Part shown: positions 21,359 to 55,775 of the stretch, in pieces
Layout: every line of letters starts with the position of its first letter
Position numbering within the stretch: position 1 is the stretch's first letter
Source: Candidatus Iainarchaeum sp.
GTDB taxonomy: Archaea; Micrarchaeota; Micrarchaeia; Anstonellales; Bilamarchaeaceae
NCBI GenBank assembly: GCA_028714535.1
Contig: JAQTME010000001.1
Coordinates: forward strand, 1,270 to 65,269
Reading direction: 5' to 3'
Length of the DNA stretch: 64,000 bases
Program-made: the position numbers and the translations under genes
The notes under the pieces: generated by a model
Databases searched by the model: none
What the model saw: only the letters and a program-made list of their open reading frames with translations
What the model was told of the DNA's origin: nothing

Positions 21359-21395
21359 ACCGAAAAATAGAATAATGGCAACTGTTTAAAAAGCG

Positions 21396-23057: not shown

Positions 23058-23058
23058 G

Positions 23059-23967
23059 TCAGCCGGCCCTCCTGCGCTCGGACGCCACAAGGCGCCTGAC
23101 GCCGTCCTCAAGGGATACCGATGAGCGGAAGCCCAGCCGCCTTTCCGCCAGGGACGTGTCCGCCAGCGTGTGGGCGACATAGTTCCTTATCCGGTTCGGC
23201 TGGTACACCGGCCTTATGGACGTGCCCAGCTCCGCGTTGAGCAGCCCGACCACGCGGTTGAACGTGGCCGCCTTACCTGTGCCGATGTTGAATATGCCGT
23301 GCTCCATGCATCCCAGCGCGAGCGTGTTCGCCTTCACCACGTCGTCCACGTGGATGAAGTCGCGCGTCTGCATGCCGTCGCCGAACAGCACCGGGCTCTC
23401 CCCGGCCTCCATGGCCCACATGAACTGGCTGATGGGATTCGCATACCTGCCCTTGGGGCGCTCGCCGGGGCCGTAGACGCTGAAATAGCGCAGGCCTGCC
23501 GAAGGGAGCGAGTAGAGGGAGTGATAGAGCTCTGCCAGCCGCTCCATCGCATAGCGCGCCTCTGTGTAGAAATCCGTTACCGCGATTGGCATGCCCTCGC
23601 GGTGCGGAGGCTCATTGCCGTTGTAGAGGGAGCTGGATGACGCAAAAACCAGGCGGCTGTCGTTCCTGCGCGCGTAGTCGAGGACCGCGAGCCAGTCTGC
23701 CAGCGCCCTGGCGACGAGCTGCGGGTTTTCCAGGTACATCGGCGACGAGGAATAGGTGCCGAGATGGAGCACCGCCTCGAATTTCCCCTTCATGCCTGCG
23801 ATTTTGCCTGCATCGCCTTCAATGGCCTTCACCTTTGCCGCTGCGATGCTGCTGCGGCTGCCGGTGTGCAGGTTGTCAAGCACACTGACATCATGCCCTT
23901 CGGCGACAAGGCGCGCGGCCGTGTGTGAGCCGATGAAGCCGAGGCCGCCGGTAACGAGTATCTTCAT
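23059..23967 (-). CDS. NAD-dependent sugar epimerase/dehydratase (extended SDR family)
   Basis: TGGLGFIGSH Rossmann motif and a YxxxK catalytic motif. Confidence 0.8.
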   Translation of the reverse strand: MKILVTGGLGFIGSHTAARLVAEGHDVSVLDNLHTGSRSSIAAAKVKAIEGDAGKIAGMKGKFEAVLHLGTYSSSPMYLENPQLVARALADWLAVLDYARRNDSRLVFASSSSLYNGNEPPHREGMPIAVTDFYTEARYAMERLAELYHSLYSLPSAGLRYFSVYGPGERPKGRYANPISQFMWAMEAGESPVLFGDGMQTRDFIHVDDVVKANTLALGCMEHGIFNIGTGKAATFNRVVGLLNAELGTSIRPVYQPNRIRNYVAHTLADTSLAERRLGFRSSVSLEDGVRRLVASERRRAG

Positions 23968-24003
23968 GAGAATTCAAGTGAGTTTGGGGCTCGCATAATT
24001 AAA

Positions 24004-24990
24004 TCATTTGCCCCTGTGGAGCTCAAGCAGCTCCTCAGCGAGCCTGAAGCGGCCCATGCCGTCCACCAGCTCGCTCAGCCTCGCAGACATGCGGTCGCGG
24101 GCCTGCTTGTCAGAGAGGAGCGCTTCGAGGGACATGGCGCCCTGCGGATCAAGGCCGCCTGCTGCGCCCAGCGAGAGCGCAAGGCCGTTCTTGGCCGCGT
24201 AATCTGACGCTGGCGATTCGCCTATGAGCGCGGTGGGCAGCGCGAAAAGCGCCGGCTCGCAGAGGGACTCCGGGCCTGTGATTGCGAAATCGCAGGCCGC
24301 AAGGCGCCTGGCGAGGTTGCCCTCGTTACGCATTGAATTGAAGCGCGGGTCCAGCCCTATCTCGCGGGCCAGCTCCTCGCCATCGCTCAGGACCGTCGCT
24401 GAGAACTGGCCAGGGAGCGACTTGAGCAGGCGCACCGCATCAAGGGCATGGTCCTGCCCGCTGAAGTATACGAGCAGGCGCCTAGCTTTTTCAGGATTGG
24501 CGCAGCGGAACTCCTGGAATTCGTCGAATTCTGGGGGGAGCAGGGCGAACTCGGTGCCCAGGAACAGCGCGCCGTCGCATGGGTATTCGGCCAGGTGCGC
24601 GTGGATGCTTGGGTCTATGAGCGCATGGGCGGCGTAGGATTTGAGGCGCACCGAATCGCCGAAGGCCGCGAGCGTCTTCACCTTCCCTGCGAGGGAGCTG
24701 AGGAAACCCTCGTCGGCGGCAGGCCTGTCCACCACGAGCATGTCTGCGCCTAGCTCGCCCACCTTCTCCGCCGTCGCATCAAGGTCCCAGGATGTCAGGG
24801 TGAGGTCGCCGAGCTGGGCGTGGGCGAAGCCGCAGCGCGCTATGGCCTGCGCGTCGCGGGCGTGCGAAAGGAACGTGATTTCGCAGGACGGGTCGCTTTC
24901 CTTCAGGCCTGATGCGAGCGCGAGGCAGCGCTGCAGGCGCCACGCGCCGGTTTTCGGGTCTGATTCTGCACGGAAGGCGATTTTCGGCAT
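24004..24990 (-). CDS. pseG: PseG-like UDP-sugar hydrolase (GT28 C-terminal-like fold)
   Basis: N-terminal MPKIAFRAESDPKTGAWRLQRCLALA resembles PseG (MKI.FRAD.S..IG.GHVMRCL.LA). It lies in the nonulosonate gene neighbourhood. Confidence 0.55.
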   Translation of the reverse strand: MPKIAFRAESDPKTGAWRLQRCLALASGLKESDPSCEITFLSHARDAQAIARCGFAHAQLGDLTLTSWDLDATAEKVGELGADMLVVDRPAADEGFLSSLAGKVKTLAAFGDSVRLKSYAAHALIDPSIHAHLAEYPCDGALFLGTEFALLPPEFDEFQEFRCANPEKARRLLVYFSGQDHALDAVRLLKSLPGQFSATVLSDGEELAREIGLDPRFNSMRNEGNLARRLAACDFAITGPESLCEPALFALPTALIGESPASDYAAKNGLALSLGAAGGLDPQGAMSLEALLSDKQARDRMSARLSELVDGMGRFRLAEELLELHRGK

Positions 24991-25000
24991 GGGAAGCGCC

Positions 25001-26134
25001 TCAGTATGTCTTTCTCCTGCCCAGGACGCTGTCCGCGGCGGCAAAGACCTCGTCCACGGTTATCAGCTTCATGCACTCGCCGTCGCACGGCCTGAACTCG
25101 TTGATGTGGACGTTTATCACAGGATGGCCGGGCGTCGGATGGTATATTGCGGTGTTGCGCCCCGGTGGGAACGGGCCGAAGCGCTCGGGCGTGTTCGGGC
25201 CGAAAAGGCCGATGGCCGGCACGCCCTGGGCCGCTGCGATGTGCATCGGGCCGGTGTCGTTGGACACCATAAGGTCGTACTGGCTTATCAGGTAGAAGAG
25301 CGTCGATGCTGCCATGTCAGGGAAATTGTACACGCCCCCCTTCCGTTTCAGCATCGATATTATCTCCTCGTTGCCTGCCGCCTCTGCGCCTGAGCCCGTG
25401 AGTATCACCGTGCAGTCGTACCTCGCGGTTATCCGGTCTATCAGCTCCGCGAACCGTTCCTTGGGCCACGCGCGCCACGGGGCGGTCGGGCCGCAGAACG
25501 CATGGATGCCGATGATGGGCTTGCCTCCCTTGGGCCTGATATTGTTTGCCTCGAAACGGAGGTCGGCGGCCTTGCGCGCTGCCTCGCCGTACCTCAGCCT
25601 GACCAGCTCCGCAGGCCTTGCCGCGATGCCCAGCGGCGAGAGCAGGTCGCAGAACGTGTAGACCACGTGCTGGCGGTCGTTGTAATGGACGTTGGCATCG
25701 TACAGCTTCGCGCGCTCGCCGTAATCGAAGCCGATTGAGCGCTTCCCCATGAAGAACGCGAGGATTGCGGAAATCGCGAAGTGCGGCTCGGTGTCCATGG
25801 CCAGGTCGTACCTCCACAAGCTGGCCAGCACAATGATCGGAAGCTGCCAGGTCCACACCGTCCTGCACTCGTCTATGAACGGCTGGGCGAAGAACACGTC
25901 GTAGTTGCGCCGGGTGCACAGGACGGTTATTTTAGCGTCCGGCCTCGCGTCCTTGAGCGCCTTGAGCAGGGGTAATGTGAGTATGGTCTCGCCGAGGCCC
26001 CAGAAGCGCAGGACAAGGATGCTTTTCGGCTGCTGGTCGAGCGGCTTTTTTTTCTTGAATACTGAAAGCAGCCTGCAGAAGAATGGCAGGATATTTTTCT
26101 CGACAAAGCGCTCTGCGCCGTAGAACAGGCTCAC
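25001..26134 (-). CDS. glycosyltransferase family 9 (ADP-heptose:acceptor heptosyltransferase-like)
   Basis: N-terminal ILVLRFWGLGETILTLPLLKAL is the GT9 hallmark. Its start overlaps the stop of the downstream hldE-like genes. Confidence 0.7.
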   Translation of the reverse strand: MSLFYGAERFVEKNILPFFCRLLSVFKKKKPLDQQPKSILVLRFWGLGETILTLPLLKALKDARPDAKITVLCTRRNYDVFFAQPFIDECRTVWTWQLPIIVLASLWRYDLAMDTEPHFAISAILAFFMGKRSIGFDYGERAKLYDANVHYNDRQHVVYTFCDLLSPLGIAARPAELVRLRYGEAARKAADLRFEANNIRPKGGKPIIGIHAFCGPTAPWRAWPKERFAELIDRITARYDCTVILTGSGAEAAGNEEIISMLKRKGGVYNFPDMAASTLFYLISQYDLMVSNDTGPMHIAAAQGVPAIGLFGPNTPERFGPFPPGRNTAIYHPTPGHPVINVHINEFRPCDGECMKLITVDEVFAAADSVLGRRKTY

Positions 26135-26634
26135 CGCCTCCCGCCAGAGTAGGCCTCGATTATCTTCTTTATGAGCGACGTGGTGGTTATCTCTGACCCG
26201 GAGTCCTCTATGACCACCTTGCCGCCGTATGAGCGCACGAGCCCGGTCTCGGGCATCCTGTCAGCCTTCCAGTCGCCGCCCTTCACGTGGACGTCTGGCT
26301 GGAGCGCCTCGATAGTCTTTTCAGGGGTGCTTTCCTCGAAAATGACCACGTAATCAACGCACGGGAGCGCGCACAGCATCTCGGCGCGGTATTTCTGCGC
26401 GACGATAGGCCGCAGCGGGCCTTTTATCTTCCTGACGGACTCGTCGGAGTTGATGCCGACTATGAGCACGTCGCCGTGGGACTTGGCCTTGTTCAGGAAG
26501 CGCACGTGGCCCACGTGCATCAGGTCGAACACGCCGTTGGTGAAGACGAACTTCACCTTCTTGTCCTGGTCCCTGAGCTTCTGCCGAATGGATGCAAGCT
26601 TTTCAACCGTGATTAGTTCCCCCATGTCAATCAA
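26131..26634 (-). CDS. D-beta-D-heptose 1-phosphate adenylyltransferase (HldE domain II, stand-alone)
   Basis: FTNGVFDLMHVGHVRFLNKAKSHGDVLIVGINSD...VKGGDWK matches the RfaE/HldE C-terminal cytidylyltransferase-like domain. Confidence 0.85.
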   Translation of the reverse strand: MIDMGELITVEKLASIRQKLRDQDKKVKFVFTNGVFDLMHVGHVRFLNKAKSHGDVLIVGINSDESVRKIKGPLRPIVAQKYRAEMLCALPCVDYVVIFEESTPEKTIEALQPDVHVKGGDWKADRMPETGLVRSYGGKVVIEDSGSEITTTSLIKKIIEAYSGGRR

Positions 26635-27565
26635 GCCCCGGCAGCTCGGCCAGTGTTATCGCCGGATGCGGCTTTGCGATGGCCTTCGCGCAGCCGGCGT
26701 TGGCGAGCTTCACCGCATCGTCCATGCTTTTCCCCGATGCCAGCGCAAGCGTGAATATCGCGACGAAGATGTCGCCGGCGCCGGAGACGTTGACCACTTC
26801 TTTAGCCATGGACGGCCAGGTGCGGAACGCATTGGCTTTCGCATCTGCTATTGATGCGCCCTTCCCGCTCCGTTTCACGACCACCACGCTGCCGCTCGAT
26901 TTGGACAGTGCAAGCGCGCAGGCGCGGACTTCAGCCTCTTCATTTTTCATGCCGTCCTTGCCTGACGCTGCGCCGAGCTCGTGCAGGTTCGGCACGAGTA
27001 TGACGTTGCCGCCCCTGTAGGCGCCGATGTCGCCCTTGGTGTCCACGACGACCTTCTTTCCCTTCGCACGGGCGAATGCGAGCGCGCCTTCAATGAGTTT
27101 TTTGGTTAGCATGCCCTTCGCGTAATCGGAGATGATGATGAAGTCGGCGTCTTTCGCTGCGCTTTCAAGCCTTTCAAGCACCGCGCGCTCGGCAGCCGCG
27201 CTTATGGGCCGGCGCGTTTCGCTGTCAGCGCGCAGGAGCATCTGGAACAGCGGCTTTGTTTTCACGAAGCGCGTTTTCAGCGTGGTTTTCCTGTCCTCTT
27301 CGACCGGAAGGAAGTTTACGCCTGCCTCGGACAGCAGCTTCATGATGCCTGCTGCCGGCACGTCCATGCCGACGACAGAAAGGAAATGGACGTGGACGCC
27401 CAGGCCGGCCAGCGTCGATGCCACTATGCCTGCGCCGCCTGGGAAAAACTCCTCCCTTTCAACGTCAAGCACAGGCACGGGCGCCTCAGGCGACATCCGG
27501 TTCACCGAGCCGTAAACGTAATGGTCGAGCATCACGTCGCCGATGACAAGTATTTTCTTTGGCAT
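26627..27565 (-). CDS. D-beta-D-heptose 7-phosphate kinase (HldE domain I, stand-alone ribokinase-fold)
   Basis: ILVIGDVMLDHYVYGSVNRMSPEAPVPVL matches the HldE N-terminus, and a C-terminal GAGD motif is present. Confidence 0.85.
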   Translation of the reverse strand: MPKKILVIGDVMLDHYVYGSVNRMSPEAPVPVLDVEREEFFPGGAGIVASTLAGLGVHVHFLSVVGMDVPAAGIMKLLSEAGVNFLPVEEDRKTTLKTRFVKTKPLFQMLLRADSETRRPISAAAERAVLERLESAAKDADFIIISDYAKGMLTKKLIEGALAFARAKGKKVVVDTKGDIGAYRGGNVILVPNLHELGAASGKDGMKNEEAEVRACALALSKSSGSVVVVKRSGKGASIADAKANAFRTWPSMAKEVVNVSGAGDIFVAIFTLALASGKSMDDAVKLANAGCAKAIAKPHPAITLAELPGLD

Positions 27566-27572
27566 AGAACCG

Positions 27573-28163
27573 CTACCCGCTCCTGTGTGGCACTGGCCTG
27601 ATGGAGAACGCGTCGTCCACCAGCCCGCAGATGCAGTGGATTATGAGTATGTGCATCTCCTGTATCGTGGGCGTGCTGTCCGAGGCGACCACGAGCGATT
27701 TGTCGCACATCGGCTTCAGCCTTCCGCCGCCCTTGCCGAGCAGCGCGACCGTCTGGATGCCGATTGCCCTGGCTGCCTTCGCGGCCTCCAGCAGGTTCTC
27801 TGAGTCGCCGCTGGTGCTCAGGAGCACGAGCACGTCGCCCCTTTTCCCGAGCGCCTCGACCTGGCGCGCGAACACGCGCCCGAAGCCGTAGTCGTTTGAA
27901 ATCGCAGTGAGCGCGGATGTATCAGTCGTGAGCGCGATGCCGGGCAGCGCCTTCCTCTCCTTGATGTACCTGCCGCTGAGCTCTGCTGCGAAATGCTGGG
28001 CGTCGGCGGCGCTGCCGCCGTTGCCGCAGATGAGGACCTTGCCGCCTGCCTTGAGGGAAGCCAGGATTGGCGATGCCAATGCCTCTATGTCTGCCGCCTT
28101 GAGGCCCTGGCAGACTTTCGCATGCTCCAACAGCAAATCGGACGGTTTCATCACTCCCATCAT
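27573..28163 (-). CDS. gmhA: phosphoheptose (sedoheptulose-7-phosphate) isomerase, SIS domain
   Basis: [17 protein letters not shown] motif. Confidence 0.85.
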
Positions 28164-28219
28164 ATCGGGGACGGTTTTTATTCTTTTTTATCCCTAATAG
28201 GATATCTTCTGGTGTGTTT

Positions 28220-29206
28220 ATGGATGACGTTTTAGACGGCAAAGTGGTCCTGGTGACCGGTGGCACCGGCTCATTCGGCACGAAGTTCGCCGAGGTCCTG
28301 CTCAAGAGCCACAATCCCAAGTCCATAAGGGTCTATTCAAGGGGCGAGCTCAAGCAGGTCGAGATGGAGCGCAAGCTGGGCCAGCCGAAGGTCCGCTTCC
28401 TCGTCGGCGACGTGCGCGACAGGGAGCGGTTGTACCGCGCCATGAACGGCGTGGACATAGTGGTCCACGCGGCGGCGCTCAAGCACGTTCCGGTATGCGA
28501 GTACAATCCCATGGAGGCGGTGAAGACCAACGTCCATGGCGCGGAGAACGTCATCGACGCGGCCATAGACAACGGCGTGGAGAAGGTCATAGCGCTGAGC
28601 ACCGATAAGGCGGTCCAGCCGGTCAACCTTTATGGCGCTACGAAGCTCGTCGCTGAGAAGATGTTCGTCCAGGCGAATGCGTACGTGGGCATGAGGAAGA
28701 CGAGGTTCAGTTGCGTGCGCTACGGCAACGTCATCGGCAGCAGCGGCAGCGTGGTCCCGCTTTTCGCAAAGCAGAAGGAGAAGGGCGAGGTCACCATAAC
28801 CGACGAGCGCATGACAAGGTTCTGGATAACGCTTGAGGAAGGCGTGGCGCTGGTCCTCAAGTCCATAGAGCTCATGAAGGGTGGCGAGATATTCGTGCCG
28901 AGGATACCGAGCACTAAAATCACTGAGCTGGCGGACGTGATGGCGCCCGGCGCGAAAAAGAAGGTCATAGGCATAAGGCCTGGCGAGAAGCTCCACGAGG
29001 TGCTCATAACCCAGGACGAGGCACGCCACGCGAAGAAGGTGGATGGGACATTCATAATCGAGCCCGAGCATGCGTTCTGGGACGTGAAGAACCATGTGAA
29101 GGGGGTGCCGCTGCCCGAGGGATTCTCATATTCAAGCGACAACAACGACTGGTGGCTGGCCAAAGACGAATTGAAGAAGGTCCTCAAGAAAGAGGGGTGG
29201 CTCTAA
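28220..29206 (+). CDS. pseB: UDP-N-acetylglucosamine 4,6-dehydratase (inverting), PseB/FlmA/CapD-like
   Basis: VLVTGGTGSFG and the YGATK catalytic motif. I chose the ATG at 28220; the track lists a GTG at 28214. Confidence 0.8.
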   Translation: MDDVLDGKVVLVTGGTGSFGTKFAEVLLKSHNPKSIRVYSRGELKQVEMERKLGQPKVRFLVGDVRDRERLYRAMNGVDIVVHAAALKHVPVCEYNPMEAVKTNVHGAENVIDAAIDNGVEKVIALSTDKAVQPVNLYGATKLVAEKMFVQANAYVGMRKTRFSCVRYGNVIGSSGSVVPLFAKQKEKGEVTITDERMTRFWITLEEGVALVLKSIELMKGGEIFVPRIPSTKITELADVMAPGAKKKVIGIRPGEKLHEVLITQDEARHAKKVDGTFIIEPEHAFWDVKNHVKGVPLPEGFSYSSDNNDWWLAKDELKKVLKKEGWL

Positions 29207-29253
29207 CGGCTGACGGAGGCCGCCTTGCGGCCGAACGTCCTCGTGGTGGTTAT

Positions 29254-30414
29254 ATGGAGGAGAAGAAAGGCGTGAAGCAGCTTCCGTATGGCCGCCAGTT
29301 CATAGACGATGACGACATCAACGCGGTCATAGCAACCCTGAAAAGCGACTGGCTCACGACCGGTCCGAAGGTGGATGAGTTCGAGAAGGCGATATGCGAT
29401 TATACAGGGGCGAAATACGCGGTGGCGGTGAATTCAGGCACGAGCGCGCTTGACATCGCAGTGGCCGCGTTCGGCCTGCCTGCTGGAAGCGAAATCATAA
29501 CGACGCCGTTCTCATTCGCCGCATCGGCGAACTGCATCGCGTACAACGGCTGCAGGCCGGTTTTCGCGGACATCGACCCGAAAACCTACAATATAGACCC
29601 GGAGCAGGTGCGGAAAAAGATAACGAAGAAAACAAAGGCGATAATCTACGTCGATTACGCAGGCCAGCCCTGCGACATAAAGGCGCTGCAGGAGATAGCA
29701 GAAGAAAAAAACCTGTTCCTGATTGAGGACGCTGCGCACGCGCTTGGCGCGAAATACAATGGCAAAAAAATCGGCACGTTCGCCCATATGACCGAGTTCT
29801 CGTTCCATCCTGTCAAGCACATAACTACCGGCGAGGGCGGCGCGATAACAACGGACGACGGCGCACTGGCCGACAAGCTGCGCATGCTGCGCAACCACGG
29901 CCTGGACAAAAGCGCGCGGGAGCGGTTCGGGCCCGACGCGGGCTACGCATACGACATGAGGATGCTCGGGCGCAACTATCGCATAACGGACATGCAGTGC
30001 GCGCTCGGGATATCGCAGATGAAAAAGCTCGACAGGTTCATAAAAGGCAGGAGGGAGCTCGTTGCGGCATACGGCAGGGAACTCGCAACCCTGCCGCTGG
30101 CCATGCCATACGTCGCGCCGAACGTGGAAAGCGCCTGGCACCTGTATACGGTCCAGCTCGGCAGGGGCATAAGCAGGGATAAGGTGTTCGCGGCCATGCG
30201 CAAGAGAGGCGTAGGCGTCAACGTCCACTACATACCCACTTACAAATTCACATACTACAAGAAGAATTTCCCGGCTAACGATTCGGACTATCCAGCTACT
30301 GAGGACGTGTTCTCGCACATACTCACCCTCCCGCTTTTCTACGGCATGAAGGAGGCAGACGTGCAGTGGGTGGCGAAGGAGCTCAGCGAAAGCATCAGGG
30401 AGGCAGGGCAATGA
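29254..30414 (+). CDS. pseC: DegT/DnrJ/EryC1-family PLP aminotransferase (PseC-like)
   Basis: Pyridoxal-lysine context FSFHPVKHITTGEGG. I chose the ATG at 29254, downstream of the pseB stop. Confidence 0.8.
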   Translation: MEEKKGVKQLPYGRQFIDDDDINAVIATLKSDWLTTGPKVDEFEKAICDYTGAKYAVAVNSGTSALDIAVAAFGLPAGSEIITTPFSFAASANCIAYNGCRPVFADIDPKTYNIDPEQVRKKITKKTKAIIYVDYAGQPCDIKALQEIAEEKNLFLIEDAAHALGAKYNGKKIGTFAHMTEFSFHPVKHITTGEGGAITTDDGALADKLRMLRNHGLDKSARERFGPDAGYAYDMRMLGRNYRITDMQCALGISQMKKLDRFIKGRRELVAAYGRELATLPLAMPYVAPNVESAWHLYTVQLGRGISRDKVFAAMRKRGVGVNVHYIPTYKFTYYKKNFPANDSDYPATEDVFSHILTLPLFYGMKEADVQWVAKELSESIREAGQ

Positions 30415-31457
30415 GAACGGTTTCCATCGGCGGCAGGAAGGTCGGCGGCGACGCGCCGTGCCTCATCGTGGCGGAAATCTCATGCAACCACCTGCAGAAG
30501 AAGGAATACGCGCTCAGGCTCATAGACGAGGCGAAAAAGGCAGGTGCGGACGCGGTCAAGTTCCAGACCTACACGCCTGACACGATAACAATGAAATCGG
30601 ACAACGAATACTTCAGGATAAAGGGCACATTGTGGGCAGGAAAAACTCTCTATGACCTTTATCAGGAGGCGTACACGCCCTGGGACTGGTTTCCTGAGCT
30701 GAAGAAAAGGGCTGAAAAGCAGGGGCTCGTTTTCTTCTCATCGCCGTTTGACGAGAGCGCGGTCGATTTCCTTGAGAAGCTGGGCGTCCCTGCGTACAAG
30801 ATCGCCTCGTTCGAGATCAACCACATCCCGCTGCTGAAATACGTGGCCGCGAAAAAGAAGCCGGTCATCATATCGAGCGGCGTCGCTACACTGGAAGACC
30901 TGGAACTGGCCGTGAAGACCATCCGCGGCCAGGGCAACGATGAGATAATAATCCTTAAATGCACCAGTGCATACCCTGCGCCGCCCAACGAGATGAACCT
31001 GCGGACCATACCTGACATCGCCGAGCGGTTCGGCGTGGTGGCAGGGCTCTCTGACCACTCCACGGGCATCGCCGCGCCTGCCGCGGCCGTCGCGCTGGGC
31101 GCGAAACTGATAGAGAAGCACATCACGCTTGACAGGAAGCTTGGCGGGCCGGACGCCGAGTTCTCGCTGGAGCCCGCGGAGTTCGCAGCCATGGTAACGG
31201 CGGTCAGGGAAACCGAGCAGGCGCTGGGAAAAGTGACATACGAGGCCGGGAAGAAGACGAAGGAGCACCTGTTCGCCATGCGTTCCATCTTCGTGACCGA
31301 GGACATACCAAAGGGCGAGGCGCTCACCAGGAATAACGTACGGGTGATACGGCCCGGCTATGGCCTCCATCCGAAGCACTACGAAGAGGTTCTCGGCAGG
31401 AAGGCGAAGAAAGCGCTCAAGAAAGGCACTCCGCTTGGCCTGGACATGATAGAATAG
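30411..31457 (+). CDS. pseI: nonulosonic acid synthase (NeuB/PseI family)
   Basis: TIM-barrel NeuB signatures (GADAVKFQT and HITLD). Its start overlaps the pseC stop (ATGA). Confidence 0.8.
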   Translation: MRTVSIGGRKVGGDAPCLIVAEISCNHLQKKEYALRLIDEAKKAGADAVKFQTYTPDTITMKSDNEYFRIKGTLWAGKTLYDLYQEAYTPWDWFPELKKRAEKQGLVFFSSPFDESAVDFLEKLGVPAYKIASFEINHIPLLKYVAAKKKPVIISSGVATLEDLELAVKTIRGQGNDEIIILKCTSAYPAPPNEMNLRTIPDIAERFGVVAGLSDHSTGIAAPAAAVALGAKLIEKHITLDRKLGGPDAEFSLEPAEFAAMVTAVRETEQALGKVTYEAGKKTKEHLFAMRSIFVTEDIPKGEALTRNNVRVIRPGYGLHPKHYEEVLGRKAKKALKKGTPLGLDMIE

Positions 31458-31467
31458 GGTCGGTTTC

Positions 31468-31899
31468 ATGGACATCACGCTGAGGCCCGTGGAAAAGGGC
31501 GACATAGGGAAGATATTCGAATGGCGGAACCACCCTGCGGTGAGGAAGAACATGTTCAGCACCGCACCCATAACGAAAGAGGAGAACGCCGCATTCTGGG
31601 AGAAACGGCTCGCTGACCGGTCTGCGTTCTCGTTCATCGTAAGCGCAGGCGGCGCTGATGCGGGCATGGTCAGGCTGGACAGGCGGGAGGGCTCCTACGA
31701 GGTTGGCGTGCTCATAGACCCGAAGATGCAGGGGAAGGGGATTGGCAGCGGTGCACTGGCGCTCACAATCATACTGGCAAGGGGGAATGGCATGAAGAAG
31801 CTGACCGCCAGGATAAAAGAGGGGAACGAGGCGTCCATGCAGGCGTTCGAGAAAAACGGGTTCGTGAAGAAAGGCCAGCACTACGAGCTTGACCTGTAG
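31468..31899 (+). CDS. pseH: GNAT N-acetyltransferase (PseH-like)
   Basis: GNAT motif QGKGIGSGAL. It sits immediately after pseI. Confidence 0.5.
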   Translation: MDITLRPVEKGDIGKIFEWRNHPAVRKNMFSTAPITKEENAAFWEKRLADRSAFSFIVSAGGADAGMVRLDRREGSYEVGVLIDPKMQGKGIGSGALALTIILARGNGMKKLTARIKEGNEASMQAFEKNGFVKKGQHYELDL

Positions 31900-32666
31900 C
31901 GCTGCAGGAATCCCATCGTGTCGAAATGATACCAGAGATAGCGCAGGATTTTGCCCAGCGGCGGCTTCTTTATCCATCTGTCCTCGATAGGGGAAAGCTT
32001 CACGGCCGCCATCTTCTCGCCTGATTTTCTTGCGAGCGCGAGCAATGCCACGTCCATGGTCACCATGTCCTTTTTCGTCTTGTGCCTGAAGCCGGCCATC
32101 TCGGCCTCAAGTCGCGGCAGGAGCTTCCTGAGAAGGCCTGCCCGCACAGCGTGGAAGCCAGGGCAGAACTGAGGCATCGCAACGCCTGCGAACGCCCTTC
32201 CTTCGGCTTTTCCGGCCAATTCGTTGAACAGCCGGAAAATGAGGCCGTTGCGGTTGTCATACTCTATATAGCCCACTGAAATCCTGGCCTTGCCTGCCAC
32301 GAGCGGGCCTATCACCCTTTCTAGGTCCTCGGGCTGGTGCTCAAGGTCAGCGTCCATGCGGATTAGTATCGCATCCTCGTCGCCGGCTGCGCGCAGGGCA
32401 GAGTGCATGCCGTCCAGGAGCGCGGTGACCACGCCCTCGTTGTTTTTCTTGTGCACGACGCGCAGGAAAGGCGTCTTGCGGGCTTCTGCGTCCAAGAGCG
32501 CGGCGGTGCCATCTGTGCTGCCATCCTCCATCATGATGAACTGGTCGATGGTGATGCCCTTTTTGGCGAGGCCGGCTGCTGCCTGCCTCACTCTGGAGAA
32601 CAGCTCCGGGACAGATGAGGCGGCATTGTAGGCCGGTGAGTAGATTATAAGTCGGCATTTCCCCAT
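31881..32666 (-). CDS. family 2 glycosyltransferase
   Basis: GT2 fold with a DxD-type motif (IRMDADLEH). The real start is an internal Met; the upstream part of the listed ORF is noise. Confidence 0.7.
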   Translation of the reverse strand: MGKCRLIIYSPAYNAASSVPELFSRVRQAAAGLAKKGITIDQFIMMEDGSTDGTAALLDAEARKTPFLRVVHKKNNEGVVTALLDGMHSALRAAGDEDAILIRMDADLEHQPEDLERVIGPLVAGKARISVGYIEYDNRNGLIFRLFNELAGKAEGRAFAGVAMPQFCPGFHAVRAGLLRKLLPRLEAEMAGFRHKTKKDMVTMDVALLALARKSGEKMAAVKLSPIEDRWIKKPPLGKILRYLWYHFDTMGFLQRYRSSS

Positions 32667-32732
32667 GGATAACGCTCGGGAGAAAAATTTATAACACCGG
32701 ACAGGCAAAGGGATAGTACTTCTGGTGTGCAA

Positions 32733-33743
32733 ATGGATTTGCTCGTTATAGGCTGCGGCTCGATAGGCAGGAGGCATATCAAGAACCTGCTGGGGCTGGG
32801 CCACAAGGTCACTGCCACGGACGTCAGTGCCGATAGCAGGAAGGCTGCAGGGGCTGCGCTGGGCGTTGCTGTCGTGGAAACCACAGAGGCAGGGCTCGCG
32901 CTTAAGCCGCAGGCCGTGCTCGTCTGCACCCCGCCAAGCACGCATCTTGAGCTTGCTGCCAAGGCGATAAACGCAGGCGCGCACGTGTTCATAGAAAAGC
33001 CGGTCTCTGACACGCCCGACGGCATAGGCAGCCTGGAAAAACTGGCCGCCGGGAAGGGGAAGATGGTGCAGGTCGGCTACAATCTCAGGTACATACCTGC
33101 GCTTGCGAAGCTCAAGCAGGTGCTGGGCGCAGGAACGTATGGGAAGGCACTGTCTGCGCGCGTCATATTCGCGCAATACCTGCCCTACTGGAGGCCCGGC
33201 ACCGATTACAGGCAGGGCTACACGGGCAAGAAGAAGTTCGGCGGCGGCATAATACTTGAGGCGTCGCACGAGCTTGATTACATCTGCTGGCTCCTTGGAA
33301 AGCCTGTGAAGCTGTCGTGCGCAGCCAGGAAGGTCAGCTCGCTTGATGTCGACACAGAGGACACGGCCGACGTGCTTGTCGATTTTGAAGGCGGTGCGCT
33401 GGCGAACGTGCACCTGGATTTCGTGCGCCAGGAATACGAGCGCGGCTGCGAGATAGAATGCGAAAAGGCCACGCTCGTATGGAAGCTGGGGTGGCGCTCC
33501 GGAAGGAGCACGCTCGAGGCGCGCAGCTTCAATCCTGCGCATCCTGAAGCCATAAAATCAGAGACGCTGCTCGACGTACCCTGGGACACCAATGACATGT
33601 ATGTTGAAGAGATGAAATCCTTCATCAGCGCCATAGGCGCGGGCAGGAAGCCGTCGCCCGGCCTGCAGGAAGGCGGGCTTGCGCTCAGGCTCGCGCTGAA
33701 GGCGCTCGAATCCTCTGAAAAGGGCAAGGCGGTGAAGGTATGA
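32733..33743 (+). CDS. Gfo/Idh/MocA-family NAD(P)-dependent oxidoreductase
   Basis: N-terminal Rossmann VIGCGSIGRRH. I chose the ATG at 32733; the track lists a GTG at 32727. Confidence 0.75.
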   Translation: MDLLVIGCGSIGRRHIKNLLGLGHKVTATDVSADSRKAAGAALGVAVVETTEAGLALKPQAVLVCTPPSTHLELAAKAINAGAHVFIEKPVSDTPDGIGSLEKLAAGKGKMVQVGYNLRYIPALAKLKQVLGAGTYGKALSARVIFAQYLPYWRPGTDYRQGYTGKKKFGGGIILEASHELDYICWLLGKPVKLSCAARKVSSLDVDTEDTADVLVDFEGGALANVHLDFVRQEYERGCEIECEKATLVWKLGWRSGRSTLEARSFNPAHPEAIKSETLLDVPWDTNDMYVEEMKSFISAIGAGRKPSPGLQEGGLALRLALKALESSEKGKAVKV

Positions 33744-34507
33744 TAACCGCCATACTCCAGGCGCGCATGGGCTCCACAAGGCTCCCTGGAAAAAGCGCAA
33801 GGGAGATAGCCGGCAGGCCGATGCTGTGGCACGTCCTCCAGCAGCTGAAGAGGTCCATGATGGTGGAAACCATAGTGGTCGCCACGACAACCAACGCGGC
33901 GGATGACGAGATAGAGAAGCTGGCAAATGCCAGCGGGGTGAAATGCTTCAGGGGGAGCGAGGAGGACGTGCTTGGGCGCTACATAGGCGCGGTGCAGAAA
34001 TTCGGCGGCGACATAGTCGTCCGCGTGACAGCCGACTGCCCGCTGATGGACGCCGGGGTCATAGACAGGGTGATAGCCGATTTCAAGAAGGGGGGCGCTG
34101 ACTACGTGTCCAACGTGCATCCGCCGACATTCCCGGACGGGCTCGATGTCGAGGTGTTCTCGCGGGACGCGCTCATGCGCGCCGGGCTCGAGGCGAAACT
34201 GGGGTCAGAGCGCGAGCATGTCACACCGTACATCTGGAAAAACACTGGATTGTTCAGGCAGAGGAACGTGGCCAACGGCAAGGACCTTTCAGCGCTGAGA
34301 TGGACCGTGGACACGCCGGAAGGCCTGGAATTCGTTGAGTCTGCTTACCGCGCCCTGGGCAAAAAAGGCTCGGCGCACAGCTTCGGCATGCAGGACGTGC
34401 TTGAGGTGCTGGCCAAAAACCCGAAAATCGCTGAAATAAACAAGAAATCAGGCAGAAATGAAGGCTATGCCAAGTCGCTGAAGGAAGACAAGGAGGAAGG
34501 AGCATGA
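33740..34507 (+). CDS. pseF: acylneuraminate cytidylyltransferase-family CMP-nonulosonate synthetase (PseF/NeuA-like)
   Basis: MITAILQARMGSTRLPGK N-terminal motif. It overlaps the upstream stop (ATGA). Confidence 0.75.
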   Translation: MITAILQARMGSTRLPGKSAREIAGRPMLWHVLQQLKRSMMVETIVVATTTNAADDEIEKLANASGVKCFRGSEEDVLGRYIGAVQKFGGDIVVRVTADCPLMDAGVIDRVIADFKKGGADYVSNVHPPTFPDGLDVEVFSRDALMRAGLEAKLGSEREHVTPYIWKNTGLFRQRNVANGKDLSALRWTVDTPEGLEFVESAYRALGKKGSAHSFGMQDVLEVLAKNPKIAEINKKSGRNEGYAKSLKEDKEEGA

Positions 34508-35820
34508 ACAAGGGAGTGGAACTGTGGAACAGGGCGAAGAAGATCATGCCGGGCGGCAGCCAGCTGCTTTCAAAGCGCTCGGAGATGCTGCTTCCGGGCC
34601 AATGGCCGTCTTACTATTCCAGGGCCAAGGGCATAGAGGTCTGGGGCGTCGACGGGAAGAGATACACTGACATGACGACCATGAGCGTTGGCGCATGCAT
34701 ACTTGGCTATGCGGACGACGATGTCAACGCGGCTGTCATCAACGCGGTCAGGAACGGCAGCATATCCACGCTGAACTGCCCTGAGGAAGTTGAACTCGCT
34801 GAGAAACTGCTGAAGATTAATCCATGGGCCGGAGGCGTGAGATACGCACGCACCGCTGGCGAGGCGCTCACGGTCGCTGTGAGGATCGCGAGGGCGCACA
34901 CGAAAAAGGACAAGGTCGCTTTTTGCGGCTATCACGGCTGGCACGACTGGTATCTTGCAGCCAACCTCGCGGACGAGAAGGGCCTGGACGGCCACCTGCT
35001 GCCCGGGCTGCACCCGCTCGGCGTGCCGCGCGGCCTGAAAGGGACGTCGATACCTTTCGAATACGACAAGGCAGAACAATTGGAAGCGATAATGCAGAAG
35101 AACAAGGACGTGGGGACCATAGTCCTAGAGCCAATGCGCCACAATTTCCCGAAAAAAGGCTTCGTTGAGAAGGTCCAGAAGATAGCCGCTGACAATGGCG
35201 CTGTCCTGCTCATCGATGAGGTCACATCAGGCTGGAGGATGAGGGTGGGCGGCGTCTACGAGCTGGTCGGGATAACGCCTGACCTAGCGGTATACGGCAA
35301 GGCCATGAGCAATGGCTACCCGATGGCTGCCATTGTCGGCAAGGCAGAGGTCATGGACGCGGCGCAGGTGTCCTTCATAAGCAGCACGTACTGGACAGAG
35401 CGCGTCGGGCCGACCGCAGCGCTAGCCACCATAGCCAAGCTGGAGAAGGAGAACGTGCCCGCACACCTGCGCAGGATAGGCAGGAAGATAGGCGACGGCT
35501 GGGCAAGGCTGGCGAAGGAGAAGGAGCTTGACATAGAGGTGCTGTTCGACTTCGAACCGCTCATCACGTTCAACCTGGACTACAAGGAGAAATCCCAGGC
35601 GATATCAACACTCTTCACCCAGGAGATGCTTGAACGCGGATACCTGGCGTCAAAGAGTGTCTATGTGTCATACAGCCACAAGGACGCTGACGTGGAGAAG
35701 TACCTTGGGCATGCGGGCGAAGTGTTCGGCATCCTGAAAAAGGCCATAGACGAAAATAGCGTGGAAAAAAGGCTGAAGGGACCTGTGGCGCACGTGGGCT
35801 TCAAAAGGCTTACGGCGTGA
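34504..35820 (+). CDS. class III PLP aminotransferase (glutamate-1-semialdehyde aminomutase-like)
   Basis: Full-length HemL-like fold. It overlaps the pseF stop (ATGA). Confidence 0.75.
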   Translation: MNKGVELWNRAKKIMPGGSQLLSKRSEMLLPGQWPSYYSRAKGIEVWGVDGKRYTDMTTMSVGACILGYADDDVNAAVINAVRNGSISTLNCPEEVELAEKLLKINPWAGGVRYARTAGEALTVAVRIARAHTKKDKVAFCGYHGWHDWYLAANLADEKGLDGHLLPGLHPLGVPRGLKGTSIPFEYDKAEQLEAIMQKNKDVGTIVLEPMRHNFPKKGFVEKVQKIAADNGAVLLIDEVTSGWRMRVGGVYELVGITPDLAVYGKAMSNGYPMAAIVGKAEVMDAAQVSFISSTYWTERVGPTAALATIAKLEKENVPAHLRRIGRKIGDGWARLAKEKELDIEVLFDFEPLITFNLDYKEKSQAISTLFTQEMLERGYLASKSVYVSYSHKDADVEKYLGHAGEVFGILKKAIDENSVEKRLKGPVAHVGFKRLTA

Positions 35821-36500
35821 TTGGCATGAAAGACGCCTATTTCAACACCAAGGAAGGTATAGATGCCTACGAGGCCAGCGAGCCTGTCAACGCGCAGTAC
35901 AACCTTGACCTGCTCGCGCTTGGCGGAATCAGCCTGCAGGATGTGAGGGGCGTCAGGGTGCTCGACCTGGGCTGTGGTTGGGGGCTTCTCCTGAAGAAAT
36001 TCCATGATGCAGGCGCATCATGCTTCGGCACTGACATATCTGCGCTGTCTGTATCAAAATGTAGGGAAAGGTTCCCTGGCATAAGCGTGGAGCAGGCTGA
36101 CTGCACCAAGAACCCGTTCAGGGAAAAATTCTCGCTTGTCATGTCGTTCGGGGTGCTGGGGCTGGTAACCAAGAACAGGCACGCGCTTTTCCTGCAGAAT
36201 GCGGCCGGGGCGCTTGAGGACGGCGGGGTGCTTGTCGCTTCAGCGCCAAACGCAGCGCGCTCCGGCCTGATGGACGCCCTATCAGGCAGGAAGCGCTCGG
36301 CATCATACGGCAACGCGCGGACAGTGGCCGAGTGGAAGGACATGCTGGAAAAGGCAGGCTTCGCAGACATCTGCGTGGAGTCGGTGCTGAGGGTTCCAAA
36401 TGCCGAGAAGCTGCTGGGGCGCAACATCTTCCTGGCGGCCGGGGGAAGCGGCGACCCGATAGTCATTTTCGCGAGGAGGCAAGCTCTGAAACAGTCCTGA
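35817..36500 (+). CDS. class I SAM-dependent methyltransferase
   Basis: VLDLGCGWG motif I. It overlaps the upstream stop. Confidence 0.7.
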   Translation: MIGMKDAYFNTKEGIDAYEASEPVNAQYNLDLLALGGISLQDVRGVRVLDLGCGWGLLLKKFHDAGASCFGTDISALSVSKCRERFPGISVEQADCTKNPFREKFSLVMSFGVLGLVTKNRHALFLQNAAGALEDGGVLVASAPNAARSGLMDALSGRKRSASYGNARTVAEWKDMLEKAGFADICVESVLRVPNAEKLLGRNIFLAAGGSGDPIVIFARRQALKQS

Positions 36501-37413
36501 ACCTGAGCCTGAAAGATTTTTTGAGTTCTGCTATCGCATCTGCAAGCACGCTGAAGTTTTTCTCTGAGGAATAGCCGAAAAACTCGTTGTCAAAGCCGGG
36601 TTCTGGCGTGAAGAACTCCCATGGATGGCTAAGGAAGACGATGAACGGCTTCTGCCCCGCAGATGCCTGCGCCTTAGCCACGCGCATGGCCGCATCGGCG
36701 AAACTGTCCCTGAATTCGCGCCTGGCGAGGTTGTGCGTGTTGAAAACCAGGTAGCGCGCCATGAGGAACCTGCCGAACAGCGGCTTCGGGTCGAAGGAGA
36801 CCGGCAGCTCTGTAATGCCATCGCGCATCTGCATGAGCGGAAGCCCGCCGGCATAGGACGGGAACGACGAGTCGGCGGCGAAGCCGCTCTCTTTCAGCAG
36901 TTTCAGCGATGCGCTGTCTATGACCAGGTTGGGGGCGCGGAATGACCTTGGCCGTGGGAAGCCGGCACGTTCAAAAGCAGCGACAGATCTCACAAGCAGC
37001 TGCATGCGCTCCTCCTGCGAAGGCATAGGCTCGTCGATGAACCATGATGAGCCCCAGGGCTCGTGCGCGTAGCCATGAAGGCCGATGTCGTGGCCAAGGC
37101 CGAGCGTCCTCAGGCCATCGGCACACTTGCTGATGAGGTCGCCCTGCACGAAAAACGTCGCTCGTATGCCGTGCTCCCTGAAAAACGGCCCGGCTTTTTT
37201 CATGAACGGCAGCAGGAAGTTTGTGCCGCCAGAACCGCCTGAGCCATAGTCGTATTCCACATCGAACGTGAAAAGCACGTCGAGTTCCGGCAGGCTGCCC
37301 AACTCCACTGCGTCCATCCTCCGGCTGAGCGAGCTCCACCTGCCGCGGTTCAGAGGATAGAAGACTGGGAGGCGCGGGTCGGTCACCAGTGAGATGCCAC
37401 GGTCTAGGAGCAT
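36463..37413 (-). CDS. polysaccharide deacetylase (CE4-like)
   Basis: NodB-like motifs (TFDVEYDYG and HGYAHEPW). Confidence 0.6.
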   Translation of the reverse strand: MLLDRGISLVTDPRLPVFYPLNRGRWSSLSRRMDAVELGSLPELDVLFTFDVEYDYGSGGSGGTNFLLPFMKKAGPFFREHGIRATFFVQGDLISKCADGLRTLGLGHDIGLHGYAHEPWGSSWFIDEPMPSQEERMQLLVRSVAAFERAGFPRPRSFRAPNLVIDSASLKLLKESGFAADSSFPSYAGGLPLMQMRDGITELPVSFDPKPLFGRFLMARYLVFNTHNLARREFRDSFADAAMRVAKAQASAGQKPFIVFLSHPWEFFTPEPGFDNEFFGYSSEKNFSVLADAIAELKKSFRLRFRTVSELASSRK

Positions 37414-37466: not shown

Positions 37467-38555
37467 ATGGGCAGAAGCGTATACCTGGTCGCGACGCAGT
37501 ATCATTTTCTGCTTGCCAGCGCCATAGCCGCTTACCTGGACAAATCAGCGGAAAAGCACCTGCTCATATCATCGCATTTCAACGATACCGACAGGCTCAT
37601 CAGGGCGCTCAACGGATGGAAAAAGAACCCGTTCGCCACCATAAAGGTCGTCAATAAACGCTGGAGGAGAGGAGGAGTCATCGACAAGATAACCACCATC
37701 TGGAGCGGGTTTCACAACATACGCAAATTCCTGGAGCGGCTGCCTGACGGTGGATTCGACGCATACATATTCAACATAGAGCAGCCCGAAGGTCAGTTTG
37801 TTGCTTATGCCAACCACGTCCGCAAAGGGAAAAACATATACGGCGAGGACGGCATAGGAGCCTACACCCAAAGGAGGTTCGGCGACTCCTTCCCGGTTAA
37901 ACTGATAAAAAAACGGCTCTACGGCGACTGGTACAGGAGAGTGGACACACAGATAAGCTATCCTTATTTCGACGAGATAATGGTCCTGAGGCCTGAGCTG
38001 ATAGAACGGAAGCCCGCTAAAACCGCGCTGAAACGGATACCTGCGGATGTTTTCGCCAGGCTTGACCGGGACGGCCTCATAGGGCGCATGCTTGCGGAGT
38101 ACGGCATAAAGAAGCTGGAGTGCGAGGCCATAGTACTCGTCCCGAATTCAAAACAGGCGGAAGCCATGGGTTACGGGCGGACGGTGGGCGCATATTCCCA
38201 GCTGCTTGACGCGCTCGTAAGGAAGAGGGTAAAGACCATAGTCAAGTACCATCCACGCGAGGAGAAGGGGGATTTCCTGGGCGCTGCCCACAGGAAACTG
38301 GAGATGATAGACCCGTTAGTCAGCTCTGAGATGCTGTTCCTGCGCTGGAAAGGTAGGAAGCGCATTGCGATAGGAGATGCGACCACCGCGCTGTGCAGCT
38401 GCAAGCTCATAGTGCCGGATTCCACGGCGCTCAGCATCATGGAGGCCATAGGATACAAGGGCGACGAAGGGCTGAAGAAAGTGTTCCGCAAATGGGGCGT
38501 GCTCTGCCCTAAAACCATAGAAGAAGCTGTAGGGCTCATCCGCGGTCGCGGCTGA
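37467..38555 (+). CDS. hypothetical protein, possibly a GT52-like nonulosonate transferase
   Basis: 362 aa and soluble. The N-terminal VYLVATQYHFLLASAIAAY resembles the start of GT52 sialyltransferases, but I cannot confirm this by eye. Confidence 0.4.
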   Translation: MGRSVYLVATQYHFLLASAIAAYLDKSAEKHLLISSHFNDTDRLIRALNGWKKNPFATIKVVNKRWRRGGVIDKITTIWSGFHNIRKFLERLPDGGFDAYIFNIEQPEGQFVAYANHVRKGKNIYGEDGIGAYTQRRFGDSFPVKLIKKRLYGDWYRRVDTQISYPYFDEIMVLRPELIERKPAKTALKRIPADVFARLDRDGLIGRMLAEYGIKKLECEAIVLVPNSKQAEAMGYGRTVGAYSQLLDALVRKRVKTIVKYHPREEKGDFLGAAHRKLEMIDPLVSSEMLFLRWKGRKRIAIGDATTALCSCKLIVPDSTALSIMEAIGYKGDEGLKKVFRKWGVLCPKTIEEAVGLIRGRG

Positions 38556-40130: not shown

Positions 40131-40138
40131 GTGGTATC

Positions 40139-49272: not shown

Positions 49273-49300
49273 TGCCCGCACCTCCGAACAAAACCACATG

Positions 49301-53185: not shown

Positions 53186-53189
53186 GGCA

Positions 53190-55729: not shown

Positions 55730-55775
55730 AGGAAGACAGTTGGGCGGAAAACATTATTAATGAAGTGCCCGGGGC

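Follow-up and report, generated by a model that had tools for sequence, protein, structure and literature searches.

We analysed a 64-kb window, the whole 64,000-nt stretch of contig JAQTME010000001.1 from Candidatus Iainarchaeum sp. to which all negative results for the window are limited, and propose with a probability of about 0.68 that a surface-glycan island of approximately 25 kb within it makes, activates and probably transfers a pseudaminic acid (Pse)-type nonulosonic acid by means of a non-textbook set of enzymes. In the predicted pathway, PseB and PseC would convert UDP-GlcNAc to UDP-4-amino-4,6-dideoxy-beta-L-AltNAc, the GNAT-family protein encoded beside pseI would carry out the PseH-type N-acetylation, and PseI would condense the released 6-deoxy-AltdiNAc with phosphoenolpyruvate. 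The CMP activation that is normally catalysed by PseF would be taken over by an SpsF-type cytidylyltransferase of the CTP_transf_3 family, and a polysialyltransferase-family protein would transfer the CMP-sugar to a glycan. An oxidoreductase of the GFO/IDH/MocA family (hereafter GFO) most likely oxidises a secondary hydroxyl of Pse or CMP-Pse and a class-III aminotransferase transaminates the resulting ketone; a methyltransferase would then tailor the product, so that the pathway would end in a modified Pse, not in Pse5Ac7Ac.

An earlier note, made from the sequence alone, had described this region as a complete Pse pathway in an archaeon. Its archaeal host is borne out, because the window encodes a Hef nuclease, the RFC large subunit, an XPD/Rad3 helicase and an archaeal-type GlmM. 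The closest related loci belong to metagenome-assembled genomes labelled Micrarchaeota, and the names Iainarchaeum and Micrarchaeota both belong to the DPANN archaea (kingdom Nanobdellati). All the open reading frames (ORFs) that the note had named were recovered at their coordinates. The claim of a complete pathway is only partly supported: PseB, PseC and PseI are borne out, the GNAT protein resembles PseH with a score below the cut-off, no textbook enzyme for the PseG and PseF steps is encoded in the window, and additional conserved enzymes are present.

Core enzymes of pseudaminic acid biosynthesis

The first operon comprises four genes:

28220..29206, plus strand: pseB, inverting UDP-GlcNAc 4,6-dehydratase/5-epimerase (TIGR03589, 2GN4; ATG at 28220)
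29254..30414, plus strand: pseC, DegT-family UDP-4-amino-4,6-dideoxy-L-AltNAc aminotransferase (TIGR03588)
30411..31457, plus strand: pseI, pseudaminic acid synthase with NeuB-family and SAF domains (TIGR03586, 8H2C)
31468..31899, plus strand: PseH-like GNAT N-acetyltransferase of 143 amino acids (TIGR03585, below cut-off)

The products of the first three genes each score above the cut-off of the respective NCBIfam equivalog model: PseB reaches 495.7 bits on TIGR03589 (cut-off 407.75, E=4.7e-149), PseC 467.5 bits on TIGR03588 (cut-off 423.5, E=2.9e-140), and PseI 483 bits on TIGR03586 (cut-off 340.25, E=4.3e-145). Rival models score lower, namely FnlA (255) and LegB (69) for the dehydratase, LegC (243.6, cut-off 420) and ArnB (307) for the PseC protein, and the NeuB/NnaB model TIGR03569 for the synthase (331 bits against a cut-off of 399.65, and 152 bits short of what PseI reaches). 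Among solved structures, PseB matches best the Helicobacter pylori FlaA1/PseB 2GN4 (387 bits, E=7e-115), with which its catalytic stretches STDKA and YGATK align; the matches to CapE/FnlA (234 bits) and to PglF (WlaL, 149 bits) are far weaker. The best structural match of PseI is the pseudaminic acid synthase 8H2C (329 bits, E=3e-97), followed by SpsE (238) and NeuB (174). A look-up of identical PseI sequences yielded a single Logan contig of 1.8 kb. The comparisons support the assignment of PseB, PseC and PseI as orthologues of characterised Pse enzymes, as the earlier note had it, and the legionaminic or sialic acid pathway that it had named as the alternative is not supported by either the profile or the PDB comparison, the synthase, the aminotransferase and the dehydratase all being predicted to be Pse-type.

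The fourth gene, previously described as consistent with pseH, starts 10 bp past the end of pseI. Its best NCBIfam match is indeed PseH (TIGR03585, E=1e-13), but the score of 51.5 bits lies below the cut-off of 93.1, and its best PDB matches are the MJ1062 GNAT protein 3EO4 (8.5e-9) and, more weakly, the Campylobacter jejuni PseH 4XPK (1.3e-4). A GNAT gene adjoins or lies near pseI in L001, L002, L003, L013, L016 and L017, and it is plausible that the window protein performs the PseH function.

The start codon of pseI (ATG at 30411) shares three bases with the TGA stop codon of pseC in an ATGA overlap (GGCAATGAGAACG), confirming the coupling noted before. The most likely start of pseC is the ATG at 29254, because the profile alignment begins at residue 44 of the long ORF. 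An AT-rich, TATA-like stretch precedes pseB at 28170-28200. The earlier remark that the gene order differs from that of Campylobacter and Helicobacter carries little weight, since the pse genes are dispersed in these bacteria too.

A second operon with an SpsF-type cytidylyltransferase

Downstream of the GNAT gene lies a second operon of four genes, which is flanked by a glycosyltransferase gene and a deacetylase gene:

31881..32666, minus strand: family 2 glycosyltransferase (GT2), convergent with the GNAT gene and divergent from the GFO operon (PF00535, E=6e-18; ATG at 32666)
32727..33743, plus strand: GFO/IDH/MocA-family NAD(P)-dependent sugar oxidoreductase, first gene of the operon (PF01408, PF22725, PF02894)
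33740..34507, plus strand: SpsF/COG1861-type cytidylyltransferase, probable CMP-nonulosonate synthetase (PF02348, E=4e-30)
34504..35820, plus strand: class-III pyridoxal-phosphate aminotransferase, similar to glutamate-1-semialdehyde (GSA) aminomutases (PF00202, E=3e-39)
35817..36500, plus strand: class-I S-adenosylmethionine-dependent methyltransferase, last gene of the operon (PF13649, PF08241)
36463..37413, minus strand: polysaccharide-deacetylase-family protein (PF01522, E=7.6e-13)

The cytidylyltransferase had been noticed earlier as a PseF-like enzyme, without its being the second gene of a coupled operon (ATGA at 33740 and at 34504); the GT2 gene, the GFO gene and a sialyltransferase-like gene at 37467-38555 had been overlooked. 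Successive genes of the operon overlap by ATGA (GFO and cytidylyltransferase), ATGA (cytidylyltransferase and aminotransferase) and GTGA (aminotransferase and methyltransferase). The GFO gene starts at GTG 32727 or at ATG 32733, with a TTTATAA box in the spacer between it and the GT2 gene, and the methyltransferase gene has an alternative start at ATG 35826. The two translationally coupled operons with their ATGA/GTGA overlaps and TATA-like boxes count in favour of the proposed pathway.

A linked CTP_transf_3 enzyme is thus present at 33740-34507; however, the PseF-like label does not hold, as the protein scores 29.3 bits on the PseF model TIGR03584 against a cut-off of 205.7, and only over residues 4-68. 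Its sole full-length relative of solved structure is the cytidylyltransferase 6OEW (E=1.7e-44, residues 4-232), and KdsB structures match only the N-terminal 115 amino acids, which form the nucleotide-binding part. Homologues at more than 50% identity number in the thousands and are named SpsF by JGI. The marks of the SpsF/COG1861 type would be full-length similarity to SpsF-type CTP_transf_3 proteins and the N-terminal nucleotide loop RxGSxRLPGK; the label used here is a provisional one, based on these JGI homologue names and on the 6OEW and PF02348 matches. The enzyme is not a member of the PseF family and is predicted to be a functional stand-in for it. NCBI annotates this protein (MDD5339655.1), misleadingly, as a glycosyltransferase family protein.

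The best NCBIfam matches of GFO are inositol 2-dehydrogenase and the archaeal UDP-GlcNAc 3-dehydrogenase, both far below their cut-offs. The class-III aminotransferase matches best PRK06209 (247 bits, below the cut-off of 486), and among its PDB relatives are aminoglycoside C-6' aminotransferases (7LLD, for example) as well as GSA aminomutases.

The GT2 protein shows weak ArnC- and AglJ-like matches besides PF00535, and homologues at 38-66% identity are encoded alongside Pse genes in four related DPANN loci (L002, L003, L004 and L010). A minus-strand ORF of 553 amino acids (31881-33542) was rejected as a single gene: it overlaps the GFO gene, and the GT2 domain begins after the internal ATG at 32666. 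The deacetylase at 36463-37413 may have a role in N-acyl editing; the related Pse loci compared with the window showed no homologue of it, and its membership in the system is uncertain.

Conservation of the GFO, cytidylyltransferase and aminotransferase triad

The prevalence of this triad was assessed in five sampled contexts, namely long contigs with cytidylyltransferase homologues at 52-57% identity, and in the DPANN loci. In all five contexts, the genes for GFO, CTP_transf_3 and Aminotran_3 proteins keep this order and directly adjoin PseB-like and DegT (PseC-like) genes, and a NeuB gene was found within the stretch read in four of them. The triad is carried, for instance, by a flagellin island from Deltaproteobacteria that also encodes a Maf glycosyltransferase (L015), by a Hadarchaeales archaeon (L016), and by a Chloroflexi locus with a row of seven genes (L017; PseB, PseC, GFO, SpsF, aminotransferase, NeuB, and GNAT). 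One metagenome contig (L021) combines it with NeuB and a PseG-PseH fusion, as judged from Pfam domains; in another (L020), NeuB was not seen within the stretch read. No second CTP_transf_3 gene was seen in any of the five sampled loci. In the four related DPANN loci, PseB, PseC and PseI occur together with GT2, GFO and CTP_transf_3 without exception (4/4); the GNAT gene and the class-III aminotransferase gene are each present in three of the four, though not in the same three, and the gene order is rearranged among the loci. A homologue of the methyltransferase (48% identity) is found in one of them, L002.

Because GFO, the class-III aminotransferase and the methyltransferase, all three apparently uncharacterised, are conserved in the cluster, plain Pse5Ac7Ac is an unlikely end product. 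The nonulosonate takes its ring oxygen from the C3 hydroxyl of the hexose and has a methyl group as C9, which leaves free secondary hydroxyls at C4 and C8; a Pse that is further aminated, and in the window also methylated, would follow from this. The proposed succession of oxidation and transamination is analogous to that of GenD2/GenS2/GenN in gentamicin biosynthesis.

A text search found no literature characterising the triad and returned only a comparative-genomics table for Legionella, in which neighbouring O-antigen genes of Legionella pneumophila Sg6/Sg12 (Lp6_762-765) are listed as encoding PseG, a GNAT, an 'acylneuraminate cytidylyltransferase' and a GSA-aminomutase-like aminotransferase (PMC3694923). 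The nonulosonate cluster of Leptospira interrogans holds an unexplained extra aminotransferase (PMC3438082).

Eight of the compared Pse clusters (L002, L003, L004, L010, L013, L016, L020, and L021) carry variable genes for N-acyl editing. These include a PIG-L deacetylase with formyltransferases, PylC-like ATP-grasp ligases, and sets of HisH/HisF-like and WbpG-like amidotransferases (acetamidino type); L010 additionally carries a metallophosphoesterase and an IS91-family transposase. The variability of these genes therefore points to many Pse derivatives in these lineages.

A PseG homologue with a degenerate active site

The remaining step, release of the sugar from its UDP carrier, had been attributed to a PseG-like hydrolase encoded 3 kb from pseB:

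24004..24990, minus strand: PseG/SpsG-family GT-B protein with a degenerate PseG active site (TIGR03590, below cut-off; ATG at 24990)

The family membership and the fold stand. The protein matches the PseG model TIGR03590 over profile positions 2-267 of 280 (E=5e-18), with 65.6 bits against a cut-off of 153.55. A single-sequence phmmer search of PDB with it gave no match, and a family profile was needed, which matches C. jejuni PseG 3HBM over residues 1-269 (E=6e-34); MurG-type enzymes match this profile in the C-terminal domain only, and distant homologues include PseG-PseH fusions. The AlphaFold (AF2) model (pLDDT 94) has a GT-B fold with a TM-score of 0.75 to 3HBN, normalised to the target. 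Foldseek confirmed the GT-B fold with E-values of 1e-9 to 1e-11, which do not separate PseG from MurG or other GT-B proteins.

The catalytic residues do not stand. We aligned C. jejuni PseG with PseG homologues encoded beside PseI in bacterial and archaeal loci, giving 18 canonical sequences, in which His17 of the GxGH motif is kept in 18/18, Tyr78 in 17/18, and Asn255 in 15/18. The window protein has Arg in place of His17, Pro in place of Tyr78, and a gap at Asn255. The subclade to which it belongs (ten sequences) has Arg or Gln for the His and Pro, Gln or His for the Tyr. The alignment is secure, because the flanking RCLALA motif is invariant. His-bearing orthologues occur in the same lineage; one of them (P0015 in L013) is encoded one gene away from a row of pseB, pseC, pseI, GNAT and CTP_transf_3 genes, and the PseG homologues of L015 and L016 bear the His as well. 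The window holds no other PseG homologue, and in the four DPANN relatives none was found up to 10 kb away from the Pse genes.

The gene is part of a conserved block that consists of a GT9 or GT4 glycosyltransferase, the PseG-like protein, an epimerase, a Wzx flippase and an A24-like membrane protein and that, farther along, includes LemA, an M48 peptidase and the proteasome alpha subunit. Differing sugar cassettes are inserted upstream of this block, for example heptose and Pse genes (the window and L018), heptose and branched-sugar genes (L011), or rhamnose/UDP-GlcA genes without Pse genes within 10 kb (L019), and in two relatives with the block no recognisable Pse genes were found within the flank of approximately 10 kb that was examined. 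The role of this protein in the Pse pathway is thus doubtful; more probably, it serves the glycan-assembly block, in which it would be a glycosyltransferase (masked or reverted) or a hydrolase whose catalytic arrangement differs. A 'PseG' call made from family similarity can be wrong, given that a whole subclade is devoid of the catalytic residues.

The block itself (20492-25044) recurs in L011-L014, L018 and L019, with a glycosyltransferase, the PseG-like protein, an epimerase, Wzx and the Peptidase_A24-like membrane protein, and usually continues with a Glyco_transf_21-type GT2, a PF1765-like gene, LemA, the M48 peptidase and the proteasome alpha subunit. In the window version, the GT2 of 393 amino acids is missing from the stretch that separates the A24-like gene from LemA, and so are two small genes. 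NCBI calls the PseG-like protein (MDD5339644.1) a hypothetical protein, and other sources call its orthologues PseG hydrolase or MurG, so that the annotation of both this family and that of the SpsF-type enzyme is inconsistent.

Several points weigh against the proposed pathway. Both the pathway and the glycan are known here from genes alone, and the PseH, SpsF-type and transferase assignments come from sub-threshold or family-level similarity together with gene context. The substrate of the GFO/aminotransferase pair might be an N-acyl substituent or a different sugar of the glycan. As for the PseG-like protein, it is conserved and predicted to be well folded, its gene is close to pseB, and in L018 a His-less orthologue likewise adjoins PseB, PseC and NeuB, so that it may still hydrolyse the UDP-sugar by means of other residues; the functional roles of His17, Tyr78 and Asn255 in C. 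jejuni PseG are those that we presume, the computed result being their conservation. A canonical PseG or PseF could also be encoded beyond the window, on the remainder of the 148-kb contig or elsewhere in the genome.

With these points in mind, the simplest alternative is a complete canonical pathway to CMP-Pse5Ac7Ac, in which the 24004-24990 protein would be PseG, the 33740-34507 protein would be PseF, and GFO, the aminotransferase and the methyltransferase would act on other sugars. It would account for the presence of a homologue for all six roles within 11 kb, for PseG 3HBM being the best PDB match of the PseG-like family profile, and for the proximity of the PseG-like gene to Pse genes, which is seen in L018 as well as in the window. 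We consider it unlikely, however, in view of the replaced active-site residues and of the orthologues of the PseG-like protein that occur with no PseB, PseC or PseI gene within 10 kb. In addition, it is improbable that GFO and the aminotransferase have nothing to do with Pse, because their genes are coupled to that of the cytidylyltransferase and conserved with it inside Pse clusters, in the five sampled contexts as in the DPANN relatives.

A more specific proposal takes the triad as a tailoring module that would turn the C8 or C4 hydroxyl of CMP-Pse into an amino group, giving a triamino nonulosonate that is methylated in this organism; the PseG homologue would be repurposed and the UDP-sugar released by a non-canonical enzyme. 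In this detailed form we regard the proposal as a speculative one that is probably not correct; if true, it would predict a previously unreported triamino nonulosonic acid.

A candidate CMP-Pse transferase

Beyond the deacetylase gene, the island includes a candidate for the last step of the pathway proposed above:

37467..38555, plus strand: polysialyltransferase-family (GT38-like) GT-B protein of 362 amino acids, candidate CMP-Pse transferase (PF07388 family, 5WCN fold)

The protein, which was previously unannotated and has no Pfam match above threshold, itself matches PF07388 (alpha-2,8-polysialyltransferase) over profile positions 3-311 of 316 with E=0.0025 and 17.8 bits, below the gathering score of 23.3. 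Nine of ten homologues match the same family (best E=1.6e-15); NCBI annotates one homologue as a polysialyltransferase-family glycosyltransferase. All family members keep the motifs EDG (127-129) and HP (262-263), which we take to be the signature pair of bacterial sialyltransferases. The AF2 model (pLDDT 87.6) has the bacterial polysialyltransferase 5WCN as its top Foldseek match (E=1e-9), and a homologue with 69% identity is apparently encoded on the L018 Pse-locus contig. The protein is a good candidate for a CMP-Pse transferase, and its presence strengthens the case for a transferred nonulosonate product.

The same protein might instead supply the missing UDP-sugar hydrolase activity, given that its GT-B fold also resembles hydrolysing UDP-GlcNAc 2-epimerases: the UDP-sugar 2-epimerases 8SYA and 4NEQ and the NeuC structure 5XVS stand just below 5WCN among the Foldseek matches, and the homologue on the L018 contig would suit this role as well. 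However, the sequence family is that of the PF07388 polysialyltransferases, with the EDG and HP motifs, and no Epimerase_2 match was found, which makes such a role very improbable. Least credible is a cluster for legionaminic or sialic acid, even though the ORF 39138-40130 just meets the LegB-type model TIGR04180 (475.7 against 475) and is followed by an NTP_transferase gene, and B. subtilis uses SpsF-/SpsG-type enzymes for legionaminic acid (PMC7439481), since the synthase, aminotransferase and 28220 dehydratase score as Pse-type (483 against 331 bits, 468 against 244 bits, and 387 bits to 2GN4, respectively) and none of the ORFs examined resembled a hydrolysing epimerase of the NeuC/LegG kind.

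Other sugar genes and features of the window

The gene of the LegB-model dehydratase is followed, within 39138-41747, by those of an NTP_transferase and of another short-chain dehydrogenase/reductase-type epimerase/reductase. A legionaminic pathway running through this dehydratase was rejected: no LegC, LegG or LegI was seen among the ORFs scanned, and the synthase, aminotransferase and dehydratase of the pse operon are Pse-type. The 39138-41747 genes are probably a separate NDP-6-deoxyhexose branch; a GT4, a further epimerase and a methyltransferase gene follow them up to 44815.

The window seems to carry two routes of heptose activation. The genes at 25001-28163 (minus strand) and at 23059-23967 encode an ADP-heptose-type pathway, found here in an archaeon, with GmhA (TIGR00441, 213.7 against a cut-off of 209.45), separate HldE domains (kinase 259 bits, below cut-off; adenylyltransferase 182.9 against a cut-off of 181.5), an HldD-like epimerase (below cut-off) and a GT9 heptosyltransferase-family protein. 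GT9 enzymes are best known from bacterial lipopolysaccharide cores. This cassette recurs in L011, L018 and the P0013 contig. A GDP-heptose-like route is encoded at 51246-55023 (minus strand) by genes for an epimerase/dehydratase, a GHMP kinase, a SIS isomerase, an NTP_transferase and a GmhB-like HAD phosphatase, after which a GT2 and an LPG_synthase_TM-family membrane protein are encoded at 55067-56780.

Between 44000 and 50000, the G+C content falls from approximately 0.59 to 0.45-0.51. This segment holds an ORF (45037-49299, minus strand) for a protein of 1420 amino acids with weak beta-helix and DUF2341 matches. The protein could be a large one of the cell surface that serves as a glycosylation target, or the segment could be foreign DNA. 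At 10775-10839 (minus strand), an Rfam tRNA match of 30.3 bits (gathering score 29) was not called by ARAGORN; it is perhaps an archaeal tRNA of atypical form, or else a marginal match.

Nonulosonic acids in archaea

DPANN cells live attached to hosts, and a sialic-acid-like surface sugar could therefore bear on cell-cell recognition. The earlier note's statement that archaeal nonulosonic acids are rare agrees with a survey of 122 archaeal genomes, in which complete nonulosonate pathways were predicted in six species only; Pse has been detected in an extract of Methanobrevibacter smithii, and Halorubrum makes N-formyl-legionaminic acid (PMC6137143). A Pse cluster in an archaeon is thus rare and is not new in kind, archaeal Pse-type genes having been predicted before. 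What is new here is the DPANN host (we found no paper linking DPANN archaea to nonulosonic acids), the degenerate PseG subclade, and the membership of the cluster in a widespread, apparently uncharacterised variant of Pse clusters that carries the triad. Once worked out, the chemistry of the triad, which appears to be undescribed, would help to annotate glycan loci of archaea and flagellin and O-antigen loci of bacteria by the thousands, and it might reveal a new nonulosonate.

Comparison with known systems

The predicted pathway shares with the CMP-Pse pathway of H. pylori and C. jejuni the orthologous PseB, PseC and PseI and the logic by which UDP-GlcNAc is converted via 6-deoxy-diacetamido-L-altrose to the nonulosonate and then to the CMP-sugar; the GNAT gene follows the synthase gene in the window. 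In contrast to that pathway, the PseF role would be taken by the SpsF/COG1861-type CTP_transf_3 enzyme, the only PseG homologue is without His17, Tyr78 and Asn255, and GFO, a class-III aminotransferase and a methyltransferase are coupled to the cytidylyltransferase, all in a DPANN host.

The sps system of B. subtilis (SpsM, C, D, G, E, F; PMC7439481) likewise combines an SpsF-type cytidylyltransferase and the PseG-family protein SpsG with DegT, acetyltransferase and NeuB-family enzymes, and homologues of the window proteins are named SpsF and SpsG by JGI. However, that system yields legionaminic acid by way of a retaining dehydratase and the SpsE synthase, whereas the window encodes PseB- and PseI-type enzymes. 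To our knowledge, the sps operon is without a GFO/class-III aminotransferase pair.

The bacterial flagellin and O-antigen cassettes, such as L015 and that of L. pneumophila Sg6/Sg12, resemble the window in that a Pse-type cluster is accompanied by the triad neighbours. The bacterial versions in L015 and L021, and likewise the Hadarchaeales locus L016, keep a PseG homologue, which is His-bearing in L015 and L016 and part of the PseG-PseH fusion in L021; the window, in contrast, has none of this kind. Finally, the 37467-38555 protein resembles the GT38 polysialyltransferases (PF07388, 5WCN) in its predicted fold and in its EDG and HP motifs, with a score below the Pfam gathering score, but its donor would be a CMP-Pse derivative instead of CMP-Neu5Ac, and a polymerising activity is not implied.

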